From Squalus acanthias (taxonomy: Eukaryota): a stretch of 64,000 nt of DNA. Shown here piece by piece: positions 5,038 to 52,000 of this stretch. Positions within the stretch are counted from its first letter, which is position 1. Each line of letters opens with the position of its first letter. Position numbers and translations under genes: made by a program. The stretch is from contig CM059432.1 in the NCBI GenBank assembly GCA_030390025.1, positions 83,578,001-83,642,000 of the forward strand, written 5' to 3'. The notes below the pieces were generated by a model. It saw only the letters and a program-made list of their open reading frames with translations, searched no databases and had not been told where the DNA came from.

Positions 5038-5962
5038 ATGGGGGCTGTACTGGCAGTCGACCTCGCGCTCCAGGATCTTTGGCAGAGGGAGCAGAGGCAG
5101 CGAAGAAGAGGAGAAGATGCTCGCAGAGGGAGGAGGATGAGGGCCAGGAGGGTTCTCAACAGGAGGCCTTACCCAACTAGGGTCTTCTGAGAGCACTTCT
5201 CCTACCTCCACTTAAGCGATTAGTAGTGTATTAGGAGGCTATGCTTCACCAAGGAGCTGGTCACAGAACGCTGCCGCCTGCTGGAACCAGACCTGTAGCC
5301 TGAGAGCTGGGCGACCACAGCTTTCCCAGTGGCAGTCCAGGTCACCGTGACCCTCAATTTCTTTGCCAGCAGATCCTTCCAATCTGCAGTGAACTGTGAG
5401 ATGTTAGCTGTGTCTCCTGAGCAGAGCGCAGGACAAGCTTTGCCAAGATAACGGGCTTCCCCATGGTGGGCGGTGCGCATAACAATCCTGAGATCCTCCG
5501 TAACCGCAAAGGCTACCACTCATTTAATGTGCAGTTGGTGTGTGACCATGCACAGCGATTCTTCAATGTCAATGCCCACCCTCCTAGCAGCAGCTATGAT
5601 GCCTTCATTCTGCATCAGCAATCTTCCAGCCACCACAGCAAACTCGAGGGTGGCAGCTCGGACACCTGGCTCATGACTCCCCTCCGCAAATCCACCACTC
5701 ATGCCCAGCACTCATATAATGGTTCCACCAGGAACATCATCGAGCAGACAATTGGGCTACTGGCGGAGCAGATGCCCATTTTGTGGTGGTCTGCTGCATG
5801 CTTCACAACTTGGCCATCATAAGGGCGCAGCCCTTGCCACCAGGGATTGCAGCACCATCTCAGAAGGAGGAAGAGGAAGAGGAGGAAGGGAGGAGGCAGG
5901 CAGCCAATCTCCCTTCCAGACGGGTTGTCCATGAATGGCTCATCAGACTCCGATTCCAATGA
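5038..5962 (+). pseudogene. Harbinger transposase remnant (HARBI1-like DDE)
   Basis: MGAVLAVDLALQDL..RRPYPTRVF; NRKGYHSFNVQLVCD; WLMTP; TRNIIEQTIG. Has stops, frameshifts and internal deletions. Confidence 0.88.
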
Positions 5963-10739: not shown

Positions 10740-12101
10740 ATGGGTGCTGTTTATACTGTCAAACCTTGGTCCTCAGAATTGGACCATGATGAGCACCGAC
10801 ACTAGCAGCAGCAGGCACACCATCAGCAGCAACAACAACACCAGCAACCTTCTCCTCAACGACTTGATGCTCCACAGGAGAGAAGGCATCAGCATGGGGC
10901 TGCACTACGCTGGAGGCGATACCCCTAACACAGGGTATACAGGCAGAGGATGAGCTTCCTCAACATGACGGAGCAGCAGTGCCAAAGGAGGCTCAGGCTA
11001 TCGTACCAGGTCGTCATAGACATTTGCAGCTTATTGGAGCAAGACCTGAAGCCCAGAGGAACGGGTGGAAACGCCTTATCAGTGGCTGTCAAAGCCACCA
11101 GCGCACTCAACTTCTTGGCCTCAGGCTCCTTCCAGGGATCTGCAGCAGACATTTGCGGCATCTCGCATTCGGCCGCTCACAGATGCATCACACATGTCAC
11201 CGATGCCATGTTTGACAAGTCAGCCAATTATATCAACTTTGCTAGTGTTACTGAGTGGGCGCTCGGCTTTGCTACTCTGGCTGGCTTCCCACAGGTGCAG
11301 GACGTCATCAACTGCACACACGTAGCCATAAAGGCACCACATCATCACCCAGGAGTTTTTGTGAACCGCAAGGGCTTCCACTCCCTTAATGTGCAGCTCG
11401 TCTGCAAGCATAGGAAGATCATCATGCATGTGTGCGCCAAATTCCCTGGCAGCTGCCATGACTCTTTTGTCCTTCGCCAGTCCACCTTCCCTCAACTCTT
11501 CGCACCTCCAAACAGACTTTCTGGCTGGCTGCTTGGAGACAAGGGCTATCCACTGAAGACGTGGCTCATGACACCCTTGAGGAGGCCAAGTACTGAGGCC
11601 AAGGAGAGATATAAGGAAAGCCACATGTCCACCAGATGTGTCATAGAGCAGACAATAGGCATGCTGAAAATGCACTTCAGATGCCTTGACAGATCTGGAG
11701 GAGCCCTTCAGTACGCACCATCCAGGGTCTCCAGTATCGTCGTGGTCTGCTGTGCCCTGGAAAAGATAGCGCAGCAGCGAGGATTAGCGCTGCATGAGGC
11801 GCAAGGCGCTGAGTGCACAGCCTTTTCAGAGGAGGAGGAGGAACATCAGCTGGAAGATGAGGAGGAGGAGCAGGAGGAACCTGCGGACCAGATTTCACCA
11901 GTCCCTGAGCACATTGCTGCCCAGGAGGCCAGGTTGGCACCACCCCCCAGCAACACCATAAAGCATTCCTACAATGACCAAGCCATTCCTTTCACACTGA
12001 CCACCATTGCTGGAGGTAACGTTACTTCTGACCATTCACTCCAACTCGTTAAGTCACTTCCAAAGTTACAGACAAAATTGGCCATGACCGGAAAGTGGTG
12101 A
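10740..12101 (+). pseudogene. Harbinger transposase (HARBI1-like), inactivated
   Basis: Likely true start ATG 10740 (MGAVYT.., Gln/His-rich), in frame with the 383-aa ORF at 10950 but with two stops between. Motifs [27 protein letters not shown]; first catalytic Asp reads Asn (INCTH vs IDCTH in the 51102 copy). Confidence 0.92.
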
Positions 12102-17722: not shown

Positions 17723-17913
17723 AAATAGTCTAGATAGAACAGGAATAACATAGTGAATTTTCGTAAATTCATTTTCTCCACTATGGCCTTCTGGTGAAAA
17801 CAGTTTCCTTTTGGCATGGAACATAGAAACATAGAAGATAGGAGCAGGAGTAGGCCATTTGGCCCCTCGAGCCTGCTCCGCCACTTAATGAGATCATGGC
17901 TGATCATCCAAAT

Positions 17914-20910
17914 TCAGTACCCTGTCCCTGCTTTCTCCCCATATCCCTTGATCCCTTTAGCCTTAAGAAATATATCTAACTCCTTCTTGAATATATTTAA
18001 TGAATTGGCCTCAACTGCCTTTTGTGGTAGAGAATTCCACAGGTTCACCACTCTCTGGGTGAAGAAATTCCTCCTCATCTCTGTCCTAAATGGCTTACCC
18101 CTTATCTTTAGACTGTGACCCCTGGTTCTGGACTCCCCCGCCATCGGGAACATCCTTCCTGCATCTAGTCTGTCTAGTCCTGTTAGAATTTTATAAGTTT
18201 CAATGAGATCCCCTCTCATTCTTCTAAACTCTAGCGAATATAAGCCCAATCGACCCAATCTCTCCTCATACGTCATTCCTGCCATCCCAGGTATCAGTCT
18301 GGTGAATCTGCGCTGCACTCCCTCCATGGCAAGAAGATCCTTCCTCAGATAAGGCGACCAAAACTGCACACAATACTCAAGGTGTGGTCTCACCAAGGCC
18401 CTGTACAACTGTAGCAAGACATCCTTGCTCCTGTACTCGAATCCTCTCCCTATGAAGGCCAACATACCATTTGCCTTCTTAACCGCCTGCTGCACCTGCA
18501 TGCTTACCTTCAGCGACTGGTGCACAAGGACACCCAGGTCTCGTTGCACTTCCCCTTCTCCCAATCTATTGCCATTCAGATAATAATCTGCCTTCCTGTT
18601 TTTGCCACCAAAGTGGATAACCTCGCATTTATTCACATTATACTGCATCTGCCATGCATCTGCCCAATCACCCAACCTGTCCAAATCATACTGGAGTTTC
18701 TCGGCATCCTCCTCACAGCACACACGCCCACCCAGCTTTGTGTCATCTGCAAACTTGGAGATATTACATCTAGTTCCCTCGTCTAGATCATTAATATATA
18801 TTGTGAAAAGCTGGGGTCCTAGCACCGATCCCTGCGGTACCCCACTAGTCACTGCCTGCCACTCGGAAAAAGACCCGTTTATTCCAACTCTTTGCTTCCT
18901 GTCTGCCAACCAGTATTCTATCCAAGTCAGTACCTTACCCCCCAATCCCATGTGCTTTAACTTTGCACGCTAATTTCTTATGCGGGACCTTATCGAAAGC
19001 TTTCTGAAAGTCCAAATACACCACATCCACTGGTTCTCCCTTATCTATTCTACCAGTTACATCCTCAAAAAATTCCAGTAGATTAGTCAAGCACAATTTA
19101 CCTTTTGTAAATCCATGTTGACTTTGTCCGATCCTGTCACTGTTTTCCAAATGCTTTGCTATTACATCTTTTATAATGGACTCTAGCATTTTCCCCACTA
19201 CCGATGACAGGCTTACCGGTCTATAATTCCCCGTTTTCTCTCTACCACCTTTTTTAAATAGTGGGGTTACACTAGCTACCCTCCAACCCATGGGAACTGT
19301 GCCAGAGTCTATAGAATTTTGGAAGATGACCAGCAATGCATCTACTATTTCTAGGGCCACTTCCTTAAGTACCCTAGGATGTAGATTATCAGGCCCTGGG
19401 GATTTATCGGCCTTCAATCCCATCAATTTCCCGAACACCATTTCCCTGCAAATACTGATTTCATTCAGTTCCTCCCTCTCATTAGACCCTATGTTCCCCG
19501 ACATTTCTGGAAGGTTATTTGTGTCCTCCTTTGTGAAGACAGAACCAAAGTATGTATTTAATTGGTCAGCCATTTCTTTGTTCCCCATTATAAATTCCCC
19601 TGATTCTGACTGCAAAGGGACCTACGCTTGACTTCACCAATCTTTTTCTCTTCACATATCTATAGAAGCTTTTACAGTCAGTTTTTATGTTCCCTGAAAG
19701 TTTACTCTCATACTCTATTTTCCCCCTCTTAATTAATCCTTTTGTCCTCCTTTGCTGAATCCTAAACTGCTCCCAATCCTCAGGTTTGTTGCTTTTTCTG
19801 GCCAATTTATATGTCCTCTCCTTGGATCTTATGCTATCCCTAATTTCCCTTGTTAGCCAAGGTTGCGCCATCTTTTTGTTTTATTTTTATGCCAGACAAA
19901 GATGAACAAATTCTGTAGTTCATCCATGCGATCTTTAAGTGTTTGCCAATGCCTATCCACCGTCAACCCTTTAAGTAACGTTCCCCAATCCATCCTAGCC
20001 AACTCGCCCCTCATACCATCGTAGTTTCCTTTATTTAAAAATTCAGGACCCTAGTCTCTGAGTCAACTACTTCACTCTCCATCTTAATGAAGAATTCTAT
20101 CATATTATGATCGCTCCTCCCCAAGGGGCCTCACACAACAAGATTGCTAATCAATCCTTTCTCATTACATAATACCCAGTCTAAGATGGCCTGATCTCTA
20201 GTTGGTTCCTCGACATTTTGGTCCAGGAAACCATCCCGTATACACTCTAGGAATTCCTCCTCCACAGTATTGTTACTAATTTGGTTAGCCCAATCTATAT
20301 GTAGATTAAAGTCACCCATGATAACTGCTGTGCCCTTATTGCACGCATCTCTAATTTCCTGTTTAGTGCCATCCCCAACCTCAGCATTACTGTTTGGGGG
20401 TCTGTATACATCTCCCACTAAAGTTTTCTGCCCCTTGGTATTTCTCAGCTCTACCCATACAGATTCCACATCATCAGAGCTAATATCCTTCCTTACTATT
20501 GTGTTAATCTCCTCTTTAACCAGCAATGCTACCCCACCTCCTTTTCCTTTTTGCCTGTCCTTCCTGAATATTGAAAATCCCTGGATGTTGAATTCCCAGC
20601 CTTGGTCACCCTGGAGCCATGTCTCCGTAATCCCAATTATATCATATCCATTTACATCTATTTGCGTAGCTCATTCATCCACCTTATTACGAATGCTACT
20701 TGCATTAAGACACAAAACCTTCAGGCTTGTTTTTTTAACACTCTTCGTCCTTTTAGAATTATTATTTACTGTGGCCCTCTTTGATTTACACACTTGATTT
20801 CTCTGCCTTCCCCTTTTGCTTTTCTCCTTCCTGTCTTTTGCTTCTATCCTTGCTTCCCTTTCCTCTGTCTCCCTGCACAGGTCCCCAACCCCATGCCATT
20901 TTAGTTTAAA
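17914..20910 (-). pseudogene. CR1 ORF2 (EN+RT), disrupted
   Basis: ORFs 20671-21069, 20131-20526, 19566-19871, 18935-19615 and 17914-18951 are successive pieces. Confidence 0.93.
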
Positions 20911-20913
20911 CCC
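20901..20913 (-). promoter_or_regulatory. Candidate -1 frameshift site G-GGU-UUA-AAC-UAA at the ORF1/ORF2 junction
   Basis: ORF1 ends ..VGEGLN*. The -1 frame reads GFKLKWHG.. without Met or stop to LKVLCLNASSIRNK. Confidence 0.6.
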
Positions 20914-21974
20914 TCCCCAACAGCACCAGCAAACACTCCCCCTAGGACATTGGTCCCGGTCCTGCCCAGGTGCAAACCGTCCAGTTTGTACAGGTCCCAC
21001 CTCCCCCAGAACCGGTTCTAATGTCCCAGGAATTTGAATCCATCCCCCTTGCACCATTCCTCTAGCCATGTATTCATCTGAAATATCCTTCTATTTCTAC
21101 TCTGACTAGCACGTGGCATTGGTAGCAATCCTGAGATTACTACCTTTGAGGTCCTATTTTTTAATTTACCTCCTAACTCCCTATATTCAGCTTTTAGGAC
21201 CTCATCCCATTTTTTACCTATATCGTTGATACCTATATGCACCACAACAGCTGGCTGTTCACCCTCCCCCTCCAGAATGCCCTGCAGCCGCTCCGAGACA
21301 TCCTTGACCCTTGCACCAGGGAGTCAACATACCATCCTGGAGTCTCGTTTGCGGCCGCAGAAACGCCTATCTATTCCCCTTACAATAGAATCCCCTATCA
21401 CTATAGCTCTCCTGCTCTTTTTCCTCCCGTCCTGTGCAGCAGAGCCACCCATGGTGCCAGGAAGTTGGCTGCTGCTGCCTTCCCCCGATAAGCCATCTCC
21501 CCCAACAATATCCAAAGCGGTATATCTGTTTGAGAGGGGGATGGCCACAGGGGACCCCTGCACTACCTGCCTGTGCCTACTACTCTGCCTGGTGGTCACC
21601 CATTCCCCTCCTGCCTGTGCAGCCTTTACCTGCGGTATGACCAACTCCCTAAACGTGCTATCCACGATGTCCTCAGCAGAACAAAGCTGGGAGAGCTACT
21701 CAACACAGTGTGCGGACTTCTCTACCGTTCGCATAAACACCATTCCCAACTGACTGACAGACAGGAGGTGCAATTGTTCTACTAGTTTGGTAGAACGTTC
21801 TATAACTGAATGGCTGACAGGAAAGCATTCATCACAAATGCTGTGTAAAAATGAGCGTGTCAGTCACTCAATTGCACTGTCACTCTGGTTATGGAATAAT
21901 ATTCTCACTTAGATTACCAATTGTGCCACTGTTTAAGGATGATTATACAAGGACACAACTAAATCAGAAGAAAA

Positions 21975-22155: not shown

Positions 22156-25100
22156 TCAAGCTATCACACTCCCTATCACTCTGGTGCGCTCCATGTGCTT
22201 ATCCAATAACCGCTTGAAAGTTCCTAAAGTGTCCGACTCCACTATCACAGCAGGCAGTCCATTCCACACCCCAACCACTCTCTGAGTAAAGAATCTACCT
22301 CGGCCATCCCTTCTATATCTCCCCCCATGCACCTTATAGTTATGCCCCCTTGTAACAGCTGCCTCTACCCGAGGAAATAGTCTCTGAACATCCACTCTAT
22401 CTATCCCCCTCATCATCTTATAAACCTCTATTAAGTCGCCTCTCATCCTCCTCCGCTCTAAAGAGAAAAGCCCCAACTCCCTCAATCTTTCCTCATAAGA
22501 CCTCCCCCCCAAACCAGGCAGCATCCTGGTAAATCTCCTTTGCACTCTTTCCAATGCTTCCACGTCCTTCCTATAGTGAGGTGACCAGAACTGCACACAA
22601 TATTCCAAATGCGGTCTCACCAAGGTCCTGTACAGTTGCAGCATAACCTCACGGTTCTTAAACTCAAACCCTCTGTTAATAAACGCCAACACACCATAGG
22701 CCTTCTTTACTGCTCTATCCACTTGAGTGGCAACCTTCAGAGATCTGTGGATATGAACCCCCAGATCCCTCTGCTCCTCCACGTTCCTCAGAACCCTGCT
22801 GTTGACCCTGTAATCCTTATTCGAATTTGCCCTACCAAAATGAATCACCTCGCACTTATCAGGGTTAAATTCCATCTGCCATTTTTCGGCCCAGCTCTGC
22901 ATCCTATCAATGTCTCTTTGCAGCCTACAACTGCCCTCCACCTCATCCACTACTCCACCAATCTTGGTGTCATCAGCAAATTTACTGATCCACCCTTCAG
23001 TCCCCTCCTCCAAGTCATTGATAAAAATCACAAACAGCAGAGGACCCAGCACCGACCCCTGTGGCACACCGCTGGTAACTGGTCTCCAGTCCGAAAATGT
23101 TCCATCCACCACCACCCTCTGCCTTCTATGAGATAGAGAGGTCGCACAACACCAGGTTATAGTCCAACAGTTTTATTTGAAATCACAAGCTTTCGGAGCT
23201 ATCACTCCTTCCTCAGGTGAAGTAAATTGGATACAGAATCGCCAGAGCATATATAGATGGAAAAAAAAGCATGTGTACTTTACAATTGCAGACCAATAAA
23301 TTAAATCATCCTGACTATCTGCCGAGGTGTGATAAAGTTAATTAAGTCAGCCAGGAAGGTACCACATCAAAAGACATAGCAAGATACAACTGAGACAATG
23401 AGGTGTAGTCGCAGGGGTTCCAACGTGTCAAAAGCTGCCGTCTGTATGTAAAACGAAAAGCTTTAAAAAAAAAAAATTTACTTTTTTACTGGGAAAATTT
23501 TTACTTTTTTACTGGGAATCACATCTGTGAACAAGCTAACGACGACTCGAGTCCGGATCACGTCATGTATCGTGACATAAACCCAAGATCCCGATTGAGA
23601 CCGTCTTCATGAGTTCGGAACTTGGCTATCAGTTTCTGCTCGATGATTTTGCGTTGTCGTGTGTTTCTAAGGTTGCCTTGGAGAACGCTTACCCGCAGAT
23701 CCGAGGCTGAATGTCCTTGACTGCTGAAGTGTTCCCCGACTGGGAGGTAACAATCCTGCCTGGCGATTGTTGCGCGGTGCTCGTTCATACGTTGTCTCAG
23801 TGTCTGCATGGTCTCGCCGATGTACCATGAGATAGCCAGTTACTTATCCAATCGGCCAAATTTCCCTCTATCCCACAACTCCTTACTTTCTTCATGAGAC
23901 GACCATGGGGAACCTTATCAAACGCCTTACTAAAATCCATGTATACGACATCAACTGCTCTACCTTCATCTACACACTTAGTTACCTCCTCAAAGAATTC
24001 AATCAAATTTGTTAGGCAAGACTTACCCTTCACGAATCCGTGTTGACTATCCCTGATTAAGTTGCCCCTTTCCAAATGGTCATAAATCCTATCCCTCAGG
24101 ACCTTTTCCATTATCTTACCAACCACCGAAGTAAGACTAACCGGCCTATAATTACCAGGGTCATTCCTATTTCCTTTCTTGAAGAGAGGAACAACATTCG
24201 CCACTCTCCAGTCCTCTGGCACCATCCCCGTGGACAGTGAGGACCCAAAGATCAAAGCCAGAGGCTCTGCAATCTCCTCCCTTGCCTCCCAAAGAATCCT
24301 AGGATATATCCCATCTGGCCCAGGGAACTTATCGACCCTCAGGTTCTTCAAAATTGCTAAAACATCTTCCCTCAGAACATCTACCACCTCCAGCCTATCC
24401 ACCTTTATCACACTCTCATCCTCAAGAACATGGCCCCTCTCCTCGGTGAACACTGACGAAAAGTATTCATTCATCACCTCTCCTATCTCTTCTGACTCCA
24501 TGCACAAGTTCCCACTACTGTCCTTGACCGGCCCTACCCTCACCCTGGTCATTCTTTTATTTCTCACATAAGAGTAAAAAGCCTTGGGGTTTTTCTTGAT
24601 CCGACCCGCCAAGGACTTCTCATGCCCCCTCCTAGCTCTCCTAAGCTCTTTTTTTAGCTCATTCCTTGCTACCTTGTACCCCTCAATCGACCCAACTGAA
24701 CCTTGTTTTCTCATCCTTACATACGCTTCCTTTTTCCTCTTGACTAGACATTCAACCTCTTTTGTGAACCATGGTTCTCTCACTCGGCCATTTCCTCCCT
24801 GCCTGACAGGGACATACCTATCAAGGACACGCAGTAATTGCTCCATGAAAAAGCTCCACTTTTCGTTTGTGCCTTTCCCTGATAGTTTCTGTTCCCATCT
24901 TATACTCCCTAATTCTTGCCTAATCGCATCATAATTACCCCTCCCCCAATTATAAACCCTGCCCTGCCGTATGGCCCTATCCCTCTCCATTGCAATAGTG
25001 AAAGTTACCGAATTGTGGTCACTATCTCCAAAGTGCTCTCCCACATACAAATCAAACACTTGGCCCGGTTCATTACCCAGTACCAAATCCAACGTGGCCC

Positions 25101-26679
25101 CACCTCTTGTTGGCCTATCCACATATTGTGTCAGGAAACCCTCCTGCACACACTGTGCAAAAACTATCCCATCCGAACTGTTTGACCTATAAAGGTTCCA
25201 ATCAATATTTGGAAAGTTGAAGTCACCCATGACAACTATTCTGTGACCTCCACACCTATTCATAATCTGCTTTGCAATTTCTTCCTCCACATCTTTATTA
25301 CTATTTGGGGGCCTGTAGAAAACTCCTAACAACGTGACCGCTCCTTTCCTATTTCTAACTTCAGCCCATATTACCTCAGACGGCAGATCCCCCTCGAACT
25401 GCCTTTCTGCCGCTGTTAAACTATCCTTGATTAACAATGCTACTCCTCCACCTTTCTTACCAACTTCCCTACTCTTACTGAAACATCTATACCCCGGAAC
25501 TTCCAACAACCATTCCTGTCCCTGTTCTAACCATGTCTCCGTAATGGCCACCACATCGTAGTCCCAAGTACCAATCCACGCTCCAAGTTCTCCTACCTTA
25601 TTCCGGATGCTCCTTGCATTGAAGTAGACACACTTCAAGCCATCTTCCTGTCTGCCGGTACATTCCTGCGACCTTGATACCCTCCTCAGTACCTCCGTAC
25701 ACTCACCACTGGCTCGTGGACTACAGCCCTTTTTCCCATCCCCCTGACAAATTAGTTTAAACCCCCCCCGAAGAGCCGTAGCAAATTTCCCTCCCAGGAT
25801 ATTGGTGCCCCTCTGGTTCAGGTGCAAACCGTCCTGTTTGTACAGGTCCCACCTTCCCCAGAATGTGCTCCAATTATCCACATAACTGAAACCCTCCCCG
25901 CTACACCATCCCTGCAGCCACGTGTTTATCTGCACTCTCTCCCTGTTCCTCAACTCGCTAGCACGTGGCACCGGCAACAAACCAGAAATTACAACATGGT
26001 TTGTACTGGCTCTCAGCTTCCAACCTAGCTCCCTAAATTCCTGTTTTAAATCCCCGTCCCTTCTCCTACCTATGTCGTTGGTACCGATGTGTACCACGAC
26101 TTGTGATTGTTCCCCTTCCCCTTTGAGGATTCTGAAAACACGGTCCGAGACGTCACGGACCCTGGCACCCGGGAGGCAACATACCATCCGTGAGTCTCTT
26201 TTGCTGCCACAGAACCTCCTATCTGTCCCTCTGACTATTGAGTCCCCAATAACTATTGCTCTCCTGCTCTCCCCCCTTCCCTTCTGAGCCACAGGGACGG
26301 ACCCAGCGCCGGAGATCCGGTCACCGTGGCTTACCACTGGTAAGTCGTCCCCCTCAACAGTATTCAAAGCGGTATACCTGTTACTGAGGGGAATGACCAC
26401 AGAGGATCCCTGCACTGACTGCTTCCTCCTAGCCCCTCTCACCGTCACCCATCTATCTTCATGCTTTGGAGTAATTACATCCCTGAAGCTTCTATCTATG
26501 ACCTGCTCTGCCTCCCGAATGATCCGAAGTTCATCCAGCTCCAGCTCCAGTTCCCTAACACGGTTTTCGAGGAGCTGGAGATGGGTGCACTTCCCACAGG
26601 TGTAATCAGCAGGGACACCTACGGCGTCCCTCACCTCAAACATTCTGCAGGAGGAACATTTCACTGCCTCCCCTGCCAT
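22156..26679 (-). CDS. CR1 ORF1-ORF2 in a single frame (CxxC zinc finger, leucine zipper, SGNH esterase, APE endonuclease, RT), interrupted by a Penelope insertion
   Basis: The 960-aa and 319-aa ORFs join in frame (..SNWLSH|RRQRVVVDG..) once 23137-23826 and one ATGAGATAG copy are removed: 2853+972 nt = 1274 aa plus stop. Confidence 0.9.
23137..23826 (-). mobile_element. 5'-truncated Penelope-like element (GIY-YIG C-terminus plus 3' end)
   Basis: YIGETMQTLRQRMNEH..VGEHF..RKIIEQKLIAKF..GLNRD; AATAAA at 23172-23177; 9-bp duplication ATGAGATAG (23128-23136, 23827-23835). Confidence 0.92.
23183..23220 (-). ncRNA. Minimal type I hammerhead ribozyme
   Basis: UCAC-CUGAGGA-A-GGAG-UGAUAG-CUCC-GAAAGCUU-GUGA: stem I UCAC/GUGA, CUGANGA and GAAA cores, stem II GGAG/CUCC, palindromic AAGCUU in place of stem III. 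Confidence 0.8.
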
Positions 26680-26875
26680 CCCCTCCAGCTAACTTGCAGA
26701 TTAAACTAGAACAAAAAAGAGCTTACCTGATAGTCACTCACCTCCTTTAGGTTACAGGAGGAGGAAGGGTGGGGGACACTACAAGTGTAGTGTCTCGGGT
26801 TTAGGAACCGCCCAACTTATATACAGGTAAAAATTAATCACCTACCCAGCAACCACTGCGTCCCACACTTTAAAA

Positions 26876-27402
26876 GCCTCTGTGGGCCTACCTGGTCGCC
26901 GCCGCCTCTTGAGTCCTCCGCCTCGCCGCAGCCGCTCCACCGCCTCTGTGGGCCTACCTGGTCGCCGCCGCCTCTTTAGTCCTCCGCCTCGCCGCAGCCG
27001 CTCCACCCCGGTCCGCCGCCTCTGTGGGCCTACCTGGTCGCCGCCGCCTCTTTAGTCCTCCGCCTCGCCGCAGCCGCTCCACCCAGGTCCGCCGCCTCTG
27101 TGGGCCTACCTGGTCGCCGCCGCCTCTTTAGTCCTCCGCCTCGCCGCAGCCGCTCCACCCAGGTCCGCCGCCTCTGTGGGCCTACCTGGTCGCCGCCGCC
27201 TCTTTAGTCCTCCGCCTCGCCGCAGCCGCTCCACCCAGGTCCGCCGCCTCTGTGGGCCTACCTGGTCGCCGCCGCCTCTTTAGTCCTCCGCCTCGCCGCA
27301 GCCGCTCCACCCCGGTCCGCCGCCTCTGTGGGCCTACCTGGTCGCCGCCGCCTCTTTAGTCCTCCGCCTCGCCGCAGCCGCTCCACCCAGGTCCGCCGCC
27401 GC
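26876..27402 (-). repeat. GC-rich 76-bp tandem array (7 units) in the CR1 5'UTR
   Basis: TGTGGGCC recurs at 26881, 26947, 27023, 27099, 27175, 27251 and 27327 (one 66-bp spacing, then 76 bp). Confidence 0.97.
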
Positions 27403-35171: not shown

Positions 35172-36125
35172 ATGGGAGAACAGGAGATGTGTTGCTGCTG
35201 CAATATGTGGGAGCTTGTGGACATTTTTGTCCAGGGTGACTTCATCTGCTGTAAGTGTCTGCGGCTCGAGGAGCTTTGGCTCCAAGTTGAGGAGCTGGAG
35301 TCCGAGCTGCAGACATTGCAAGACATCAGGGAGGGAGAAAGTTACCTGGACCTTTTGCTCCAGGAGGCAGCCAGACCCCTTAGATTAAATACTTTAGAAT
35401 TGACACATGGTCAGGGACAGGAGGGTGTGACTGCAAGTGAGGCAGGTACGGGGATCCAGGAGGTAGTATTGCAGGAGCCTCAGTCCCTGCACTTGTCCAA
35501 TAGATTTGAGGCTCTTGCAACCCTTGTGGACCAGTGCAGGGACTGCAGGGAGGACGAGCAAACTGACCACGGCACCGTGGTACAGGAAGCCGTTCAAGTG
35601 GGGGGAGTAAAAAGGAAGGTGGTTGTAGTAGGTGACAGTATAGTGAGGGGGATGGACACTTTTCTCTGCAGCCAGGAGTGTGAGTCCCGAAGGCTATGTT
35701 GCCTACCCGGTGCCAGGGTAAAGGACATCTCCTCCGAGCTGGAGAAGAACTTCGAGTGGGAGGGGGAGGATCCAGTTGTTGTGGTCCATGTAGGTACCAA
35801 AGACATAGGTAGGACAAAGAAAGAGGTTCTGCTGAGAGAGTTTGAGCAGCCAGGGACTAAATTAAAAAGCAGAACCACAAAGGTCATAATCTCTGGATTA
35901 TCACCGGAGCCACGAGCAAATTGGCATAGGGTCAACAGGATCAGGGAGATGAATGCGTGGCTCACAGATTGGTGTGGGAGAAGTGGGTTTCAATTCGTGG
36001 GGCACTGGCACCAGTACTGAGGAAAGAGAGAGCTGTTCCGTTGGGACGGACTACACCTGGACCATGCCGGGACCAGAGTTCTAATTAATCGAATAACTAG
36101 GGAGGTAGATAGGGCTTTAAACTAA
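35172..36125 (+). pseudogene. CR1 ORF1 (zinc finger, leucine zipper, SGNH esterase)
   Basis: CCCC..CCKC, LEEL..VEELESEL, LSNRF, VVGDS, HVGTKD. After a premature TGA (36018-36020) the frame continues DGLHL..EVDRALN*. Confidence 0.9.
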
Positions 36126-50019: not shown

Positions 50020-51102
50020 CCGATTCAGTGGCTGCCTCCTTCCTCGCCCTTGTTCCTCCTCCTCATCGTCCTCTTCCTCCTCGTCCTCATCTTCCTCCTC
50101 CTGGTGGCAAGGGCTGGGCTCTCATGCTGGCCAGATTGTGGAGCATGCAGCAGACCATGACGAAATGGGACACCCGCTCAGCCGAGTACTGGAGGGCCCC
50201 TCCCGAGTGGTCAAGGCAGTGGAACCGTTGCTTGAGCACTCCGATGGTCTGCTCGATGATGTTCCTGGTGGCAGCATGGCTCTCATTATATGAGTGCTGA
50301 GCAGGAGTGTTGGGGTTTCGGAGGGGAGTCATGAGCCAGGCGGAGAGCGGATAGCCCTTGTCTCCCACCAGCCAGCCACGAGCTTGATGCGGTGGCTGGA
50401 AGATGCTGGCACAGGATGAAGGCATCATGGCTGCTGCCAGGGTAGCGGGCATTCACATTGAGGATTCGTTGTCTGGTCGCACACCAACTGCACATTAAGT
50501 GAGTGGTAGTCTTTGCGGTTTCAGAAGACCTCAGGATTGTTATGCGGTGCCCGCAAAGCCACATGGGTGCAGTCAATGGCGCCCTGCACCATGGGGAATC
50601 CCGCTATCCTGGCAAAGCCACATGCATGTTCGTCCTGCTTCTCTCTGGCAATGGGGAAGGAAATGTAGTCTCTTCTCCTACTGTAGAGAGCCTCTGTGAC
50701 CTCCCGGATGCAGCGATGGACGGTGAACTGCGAGATGTTAGCTATGTCTCCTGTTGCAGACTGGAAGGAACTGCTGGCGAAGAAATTGAGGGTGACGGTG
50801 ACCTTGACTGCCACTGAGAGAGCCGTGGTCGACCTGATCTGAGGCTGGAGGTCTGGTTGCAGGAGGTGGCAGAGTTCTGTGACCACATCCTTGCTGATGC
50901 AGAGCCTTCTAATGCACTGCTCCTCGCTTAATTGGAGAGAGGAGAAGTGCTCTCGGAATACCCTCGGAGGGTAAGGCCTCCTGTTGAGAGCCGTGATGGC
51001 CCTCCTCCTCCCTCTGGCCACATCTTGCAATCTTTCTCGCTGCCTTCGCTCCCACCGCAGTAGATCCTGGAGGGCAAGGTCGACTGCCAGTACAGCCCCC
51101 AT
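50020..51102 (-). pseudogene. Harbinger transposase (HARBI1-like), disrupted
   Basis: MGAVLAVDL..QGAIDCTHV; GSSHD; GDKGY; IEQTIG..CCMLHN. Stop at 50521 and frameshifts. Confidence 0.92.
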
Positions 51103-52000
51103 TAATGTAACCAAGTGTAGCACTTTGAAATTTTGTCAGAATAAATGTAAGAAATTTTTAGCAGCCACAACACTCCCGATACTAAAGAACCTTTAAATGA
51201 CTGAATTAAACTCTTGCATAATTGCAAACTGACAAGAGGCAGTGAGACAGCACTAACCTGAGAGCAGCGACTGATCCCTTTAAATATCGGCCCTGGAGCC
51301 GCCATGCGACTGCTTCACGCCTCCTCTTCCTGTTGTTGTCAGGGCAAGACGTTAAGGCAGGGGGCAATAATCAATTTGGCAGATCGGGCGCTGAGTGAGT
51401 GTTGCACGCTCACTGACATCACGATCTGCCTGGCGCTAAAGCCCCAGGCACTAACTGTTAGTGGCGGCGCTAAGGGATGACTGGAATTGGCGTGCGGCGC
51501 TGGATTCGCCGCGCCCTGGTGCTACTTCATTAGCGCCCCATTAGCACCCCCGCCAGGTGCTAATGGGAGGCGCTAACCAATTGAATTTCTCCCCCGAGGA
51601 GTTGGGGCAGTTTCTCAGAGTGGTTGGAAGTGGGTAGTGGTGTCCCACAGGTTTCTGTTCTGAGACTGCTTCTGTTCACTGTGTATATCAATGATTTGGA
51701 TATAGGGCTAGATGGTGTGGTGTCCAAATTTGCAGACGATACTAAAATAGAAGGCATCGTAAATAATTCTGAGGACCAAAGAAAGTTGCAAGGGGGTATT
51801 GATAAGATGGTAGAATGGACAAAAAAGTGGCAGAGGAAATTCAATGCCAGTGAATGTGAGGTGGTACATTTTGGTCAAAGAAAGGAATAATGGGGGAAAA
51901 CTGGGTGAATTGGAAGAGCAGAAGGATTTGTTGGTTCAGGTTCATAAGACATTAAAAGCAACACCTGCAACAAGTGCATAAGGCCATAAAAAAAGCTAGT

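Follow-up and report, generated by a model that had tools for sequence, protein, structure and literature searches.

How LINEs translate their second open reading frame (ORF2) has been called an open question (PMC3894237), and a 64,000-nucleotide stretch of Squalus acanthias DNA (contig CM059432.1, positions 83,578,001 to 83,642,000), referred to here as the window, poses it for the CR1 elements. Among retrotransposons, the CR1 group predominates in most vertebrates (PMC13343379), and its vertebrate esterase-type members (ORF1 type IVB) combine a zinc finger or coiled coil with an esterase in ORF1, and an APE endonuclease (EN) with a reverse transcriptase (RT) in ORF2 (PMC4120745; PMC13343379; PMC3905857). 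Judging by the sequence, programmed -1 ribosomal frameshifting is most probably the route by which esterase-type CR1s translate ORF2, and it would yield a fusion of esterase, EN and RT. For most ribosomes translation would finish at the ORF1 stop, freeing ORF1p; a minority, with UUA in the P site and AAC in the A site, would shift back by one base onto UUU AAA and continue through a variable linker of 40-100 residues into the endonuclease and RT. The product would be a Gag-Pol-like ORF1p-EN-RT fusion, and the slip would set the ORF1p:ORF2p ratio.

Three esterase-type CR1 copies in the window include an ORF1/ORF2 junction and are designated A (20910, minus strand), B (25761, minus strand) and C (36116, plus strand). 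In copy A, the decayed 3' part of ORF1 (20901..21695, minus) translates as an SGNH/GDSL esterase, assigned to the family Lipase_GDSL_2 via copy B, and ends in G-L-N-stop. The slippery heptamer U_UUA_AAC that an earlier note on this DNA had placed at 20910-20904 on the minus strand was confirmed; it lies in ORF1 phase and is followed directly by the TAA (20903-20901) that ends ORF1. The same note was right that the -1 frame is open into the endonuclease with no Met and no stop, as the linker (20695..20910, minus) runs for 66 codons and reaches the first endonuclease motif (20712-20695, minus) at codon 66, while the first stop of this frame, at codon 79, is peculiar to copy A. The remaining ORF2 (17820..20694, minus) comprises decayed endonuclease and RT sequence and a 3' tail near 17834. 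The G-rich tract that had been described downstream was also found: it starts 11 nt past the heptamer (20883..20893, minus), is a candidate 3' stimulator and has the family form G5-N2-G3, with a T in place of the first G of G5 where 29 other copies have G.

Copy B belongs to a very young family and carries its heptamer and TAA at 25752..25761 (minus), with the G5-N2-G3 motif at +11 (25735..25744, minus). One extra G in the run before the heptamer (G8, 25762..25769, minus) joins ORF1 and ORF2 into a single frame of 963 codons (23800..26679, minus) that encodes the esterase, the endonuclease and part of the RT. Its Pfam matches, PF13472 (Lipase_GDSL_2, a GDSL esterase), PF03372 (APE endonuclease) and PF00078 (RT), give the esterase-type CR1 architecture of an SGNH esterase ORF1 followed by APE endonuclease and RT. 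An insertion at about 23170-23800 interrupts ORF2 of this copy inside the RT, which resumes at 23172-22159, and its translation resembles the end of a GIY-YIG nuclease; a tandem repeat, its unit visible in translation, lies in the 5' UTR upstream of ORF1 (26800-27000, minus). Copy C has the heptamer and TAA at 36116..36125 (plus) after an ORF1 ending in A-L-N-stop, but its downstream G-run is partly deleted and its -1 frame closes after 13 codons. The statement that the same sequence recurs at two other junctions thus holds in that both sites are CR1 ORF1 ends, although copy B is fused in frame and copy C is broken. The sequence TTTAAACTAA occurs three times in the window against 0.24 expected under a second-order Markov model, each time at a CR1 ORF1 end, whereas the heptamer by itself occurs about as often as the same model predicts (14 against 13.9). 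The 3' tails at 17834 and 39195 consist of short tandem repeats with no poly(A), as is typical of CR1. ORF1 is 73% identical to a shark protein and 32% identical to a penguin protein, and its closest named relatives are shark and ray proteins. Elsewhere in the window, open frames at 5421-5819, 10929-12098 and 50090-51135 resemble Harbinger/HARBI1-type transposases.

Junctions genome-wide were collected with an anchor consisting of the esterase motif followed by A, G or T 95 bases on, which matched at least 28,900 places against 188 for the control. The heptamer T-TTA-AAC with a stop, in phase at the ORF1 end, is present in 22,404 copies. A first base other than T before Leu/Phe-Asn-stop was seen in 292 copies scattered over many families, a count that covers non-T first bases only. 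A lineage lacking the first T was considered for two suspect families and rejected, T being present in 98/100 copies among the matches listed. When 176 in-phase junctions were clustered, giving 15 clusters of at least two copies with 19 singletons left out, Leu was TTA in 15/15 and Asn was AAC in 14/15, the exception being a tie in a two-member cluster. The codon before Leu (-3) encodes G, A, D or H, yet ends in T in 15/15 clusters, whereas 6, 4 and 4 different codons occur at three other positions where Leu is invariant. The free synonymous change in the Leu-Asn codons that had been named as evidence against frameshifting was therefore not found, and both an X_XXY_YYZ motif in the correct phase and conservation at synonymous positions are present. 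ORF1 codon usage gives a figure of 0.013 per independent lineage. Invariance in the 15 clusters extends to the third bases of codons -9 and -4, so that shared ancestry inflates the cluster counts; in outside loci the -9 position varies and the heptamer does not. A second, overlapping heptamer, G-GGU-UUA, had been proposed as well; it exists where the preceding codon is GGT but is not conserved, being found in only 6/15 clusters. The at least 28,900 CR1 copies that reach back into ORF1 are unusually many for a family noted for heavy 5' truncation.

The spacing between heptamer and endonuclease places ORF2 in the -1 frame. Among copies in which the endonuclease motif was found, the -1 phase was seen in 22/26 of family A and 38/41 of family B. 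It was also seen in 10/13 copies of family E, a young family with an A-L-N end. Hand tallies from coordinates gave -1 spacing in 80/100 of the first matches listed for family F and, for family C, as the commonest spacing (38/100 of the first matches listed, the others being 18, 16, 11, 9, 6 and 2); the family C frame was also checked on 30 loci. Readthrough of the stop codon in A-L-N families, an idea that arose from small samples (family C, 13/28 in the ORF1 frame against 6/28 in -1; family F, 5/8), was rejected when larger listings gave -1 spacing as the mode. In these A-L-N families the G-run past the stop is highly unstable once the element has inserted, the distance from heptamer to ATG ranging from 35 to 73 nt, and the frame of old copies is scrambled as a result.

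Linkers vary in sequence and in length, from about 40 to 100 codons. In 28 representatives, hand-picked and required to carry the heptamer, the -1 frame upstream of the heptamer has no Met (28/28) and is open for 1-8 codons in 26/28. Among the 13 shark representatives with an open linker, 6 have no Met before the endonuclease motif and 7 have one, at differing positions. The first Met of the -1 frame comes at codon 166 in family B, 269 in family A and 255 in family J, in each case past the start of the endonuclease; in family B, the youngest (median divergence 0.4-0.5%), a start at codon 166 would remove the first half of the endonuclease match. The downstream frame is thus open in -1 with no conserved start, some families carrying a non-conserved linker Met, and neither a conserved in-frame ORF2 AUG nor a splice acceptor, both of which the earlier note had named as counter-evidence, was found at these junctions. 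Nor is there a stop/AUG overlap of the SART1 type: the AUG that family A has two bases past the stop is out of frame with ORF2 and is absent in other families.

Human L1 ORF2 is thought to start independently of its AUG (PMC5009743), and a missing AUG alone therefore proves nothing for CR1. The strongest alternative, though an unlikely one, is AUG-independent termination-reinitiation as in mammalian L1, in which ribosomes would terminate at the ORF1 stop and resume in the -1 frame, with the heptamer and G-run serving as a coupling signal. Reinitiation has a precedent in L1 (PMC5009743) and stop-start coupling one in SART1 (PMC3894237), and the CR1 ORF1 stop does overlap the first -1 codon. However, L1-like reinitiation does not predict the exact in-phase X_XXY_YYZ pattern, and the overlapping -1 codon is CUA, since ORF1 stops are TAA or TAG in 15/15 clusters; TGA, which would yield the near-cognate CUG, is unused. 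Initiation at a linker Met, by AUG reinitiation or leaky scanning, with the heptamer as a relic, is very unlikely. Such a Met is present in families C, D, E, I, K and M179 and in the bird-like locus L270, but its position differs (16, 19, 22, 23, 43, 57), family B has none before codon 166, and a relic heptamer would not remain invariant.

Family B junctions genome-wide comprise 1,091 exact seven-G and 46 eight-G matches. A separate active lineage of eight-G fusions was rejected, as 15 shared variants were evenly split between 30 seven-G and 30 eight-G loci (all p >= 0.33). Every haplotype includes eight-G copies, in proportions matching those of the seven-G copies, so that they represent repeated slippage of the G-run, whether in vivo or during assembly, rather than a lineage. 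No family is fused, though two have a slip-prone G-run just upstream, which would fit selection for the ORF1p:ORF2p ratio. Among longer proteins, fused forms gave 2 matches, one of them a ray gene model that runs through the junction in frame; these weigh little either way.

A slippery heptamer with no stimulator usually slips little. Folding z-scores against shuffled sequences for the 28 representatives revealed no conserved stem-loop 3' of the heptamer, with values near 0 except in copy A (-2.7/-2.9) and locus L233 (-3.3/-2.7). By contrast, GGGG within +8..+15 was found in 24/28 representatives against 44/1,165 background windows, usually with GGG two bases further on. Part of this conservation could reflect glycine codons of the linker. 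The ViennaRNA quadruplex module placed a two-tier quadruplex near the site in 9/28, which is weak evidence. The pause behind the proposed slip would arise from the adjacent stop and the G-rich motif at +8..+20 rather than from a pseudoknot, and this motif may be bound by protein or may form a weak quadruplex. In L233 (357-520), a distant esterase LINE, the same heptamer is followed by a 9-bp hairpin (z -3.3) that replaces the G-run.

The junction might instead be conserved as a cis element of another kind, acting in splicing (as branch point or acceptor), in protein binding or packaging, or as a target of an endonuclease or of recombination; this reading has as little in its favour as initiation at a linker Met. 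The ACTAA at the junction resembles a branch point, which speaks for such an element. ORF1 modules have also been swapped between lineages (PMC4120745). The sequence profile of the junction, however, has no pyrimidine tract and no conserved AG. Contigs from 3/4 runs span the junction colinearly in the seven-G form, their status as RNA being a guess, and none of the joints listed in junction contigs has splice-type ends, which is weak evidence and bears against splicing only. Moreover, a DNA or RNA cis site need not preserve reading phase.

Conservation of the junction extends to other animals. A codon-blind scan yielded at least 128 loci from metagenome, viral and prokaryote contigs, with CR1-type loci assigned by tblastn. 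Among the matches listed, the exact heptamer was present in 11/16 CR1-type and 0/112 other loci (Fisher p 1.8e-12), the remaining 5/16 CR1-type matches having one or two heptamer changes; 11 of the 16 outside CR1 matches listed come from one record set and are hence not independent. The 112 non-CR1 matches listed include 6 bacterial SGNH esterases, and 8 carry the AAT variant. The bird-like L270 shares 98% identity with an ORF1 named from penguin, L236 has an ORF1 end nearly identical to one named from sturgeon, and L233 is more distant; the -1 frame is open into the endonuclease in all three. CR1 sequence also lies inside records labelled as bacteria (P0006, L355), which is probably vertebrate contamination of those assemblies.

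At the protein level, an L-N C-terminus is found in ORF1s named from sharks, rays, eel, sturgeon, frogs, penguin, turtles, a snake and a monitor lizard. The anchor motif was found in 86 of 136 new 50%-cluster representatives, and 40/86 end in L-N, with tails of 25-39 residues past the catalytic motif; as this end occurs at varying tail lengths, L-N tracks the stop and not the fold. Conservation of the protein end L-N alone, with codons shared by descent, is thus the least probable reading of all and is already largely refuted, since bacterial SGNH esterases can end in L-N at the same spacing (6 matches among those listed) but non-CR1 matches never do so with the heptamer (0/112 among those listed), L-N follows the stop at five tail lengths, and other Leu codons turn over freely. 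Among 79 relatives with tails of 20-40 residues, 39 have no L-N end, and of those 14 end in N, including 9 in G-N and 8 in Q-G-N (binomial p 3e-9 against 5%). The Q-G-N ends belong to distant full-length esterase ORF1s (P0168, P0170, P0171, P0184, P0186, P0203, P0212, P0233) and would fit a shift site G_GGA_AAC; no DNA for these proteins was found in viral contigs, phages, plasmids or the collected loci.

The proposal of -1 frameshifting in CR1 is thus supported, at the level of sequence, by in-phase constraint on nucleotides across subfamilies and in other vertebrates. A broader and more doubtful possibility is that the esterase CR1s of jawed vertebrates have kept one -1 frameshift site for more than 400 million years, driven not by folded RNA but by the adjacent stop and a linear motif, rich in G and some 11 nt downstream, acting as a natural quadruplex or as a binding site for a host factor or ORF1p, and that more distant esterase retroelements follow the same principle with a different classic heptamer.

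Coronaviruses use a 3' pseudoknot, and CR1 differs from them in having no conserved fold, a G-run instead, and a stop directly after the heptamer. The likeness to coronavirus ORF1a/1b (IBV site, PMC5009743) lies in the identical heptamer, the -1 direction and a polymerase in the -1 frame, and U_UUA_AAC is listed with the heptamers most prone to shifting on mammalian ribosomes (PMC5009743). Retroviral and animal LTR gag-pol genes likewise yield an excess of structural protein and a fused polymerase, with pol in -1 in 28/51 animal LTR elements (PMC5009743); CR1, unlike these, has no protease, and its fusion would therefore presumably stay whole. According to a review, the Dictyostelium non-LTR elements TRE5-A and TRE3-A need a -1 frameshift for ORF2 translation (PMC5911963), which gives the mechanism a precedent among non-LTR elements, although these belong to another clade and host and no esterase ORF1 is described for them in the sections available. 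In the Athena Penelope-like elements ORF1 can be split from RT by a frameshift (PMC8557442), but they represent a different retroelement class and theirs is associated with a pseudoknot. The spacing of the CR1 G-motif resembles that of stimulators bound by trans-acting factors: in arterivirus nsp2 and cardioviruses the 3' stimulator lies 12-15 nt from the site and can be linear RNA bound by such a factor (PMC5009743). The factor there is the viral nsp1beta together with a poly(C)-binding protein, whereas the CR1 motif is G-rich and any factor for it would be putative. That review, from 2016, knew of no natural case of quadruplex-stimulated frameshifting and, in the sections available, does not mention CR1; the word "frameshift" does not occur in the available main text of three papers on these elements (PMC4120745; PMC13343379; PMC3905857). 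No report of CR1 frameshifting was found in the literature searched, and on balance the slip site appears to be unreported, though an earlier remark in primary CR1 papers or in Repbase or Dfam notes is possible.

If the frameshifting reading is correct, annotations that start CR1 ORF2 at the first Met are wrong, and engineered CR1 vectors would need the junction. With over 1,000 near-identical junctions, family B makes frameshifting directly testable. In the G-rich motif these elements may have a natural stimulator of a new kind, and CR1 might then also respond to host factors that influence viral frameshifting. For the elements themselves, CR1 ORF2p would be a fusion protein tethered to an esterase.
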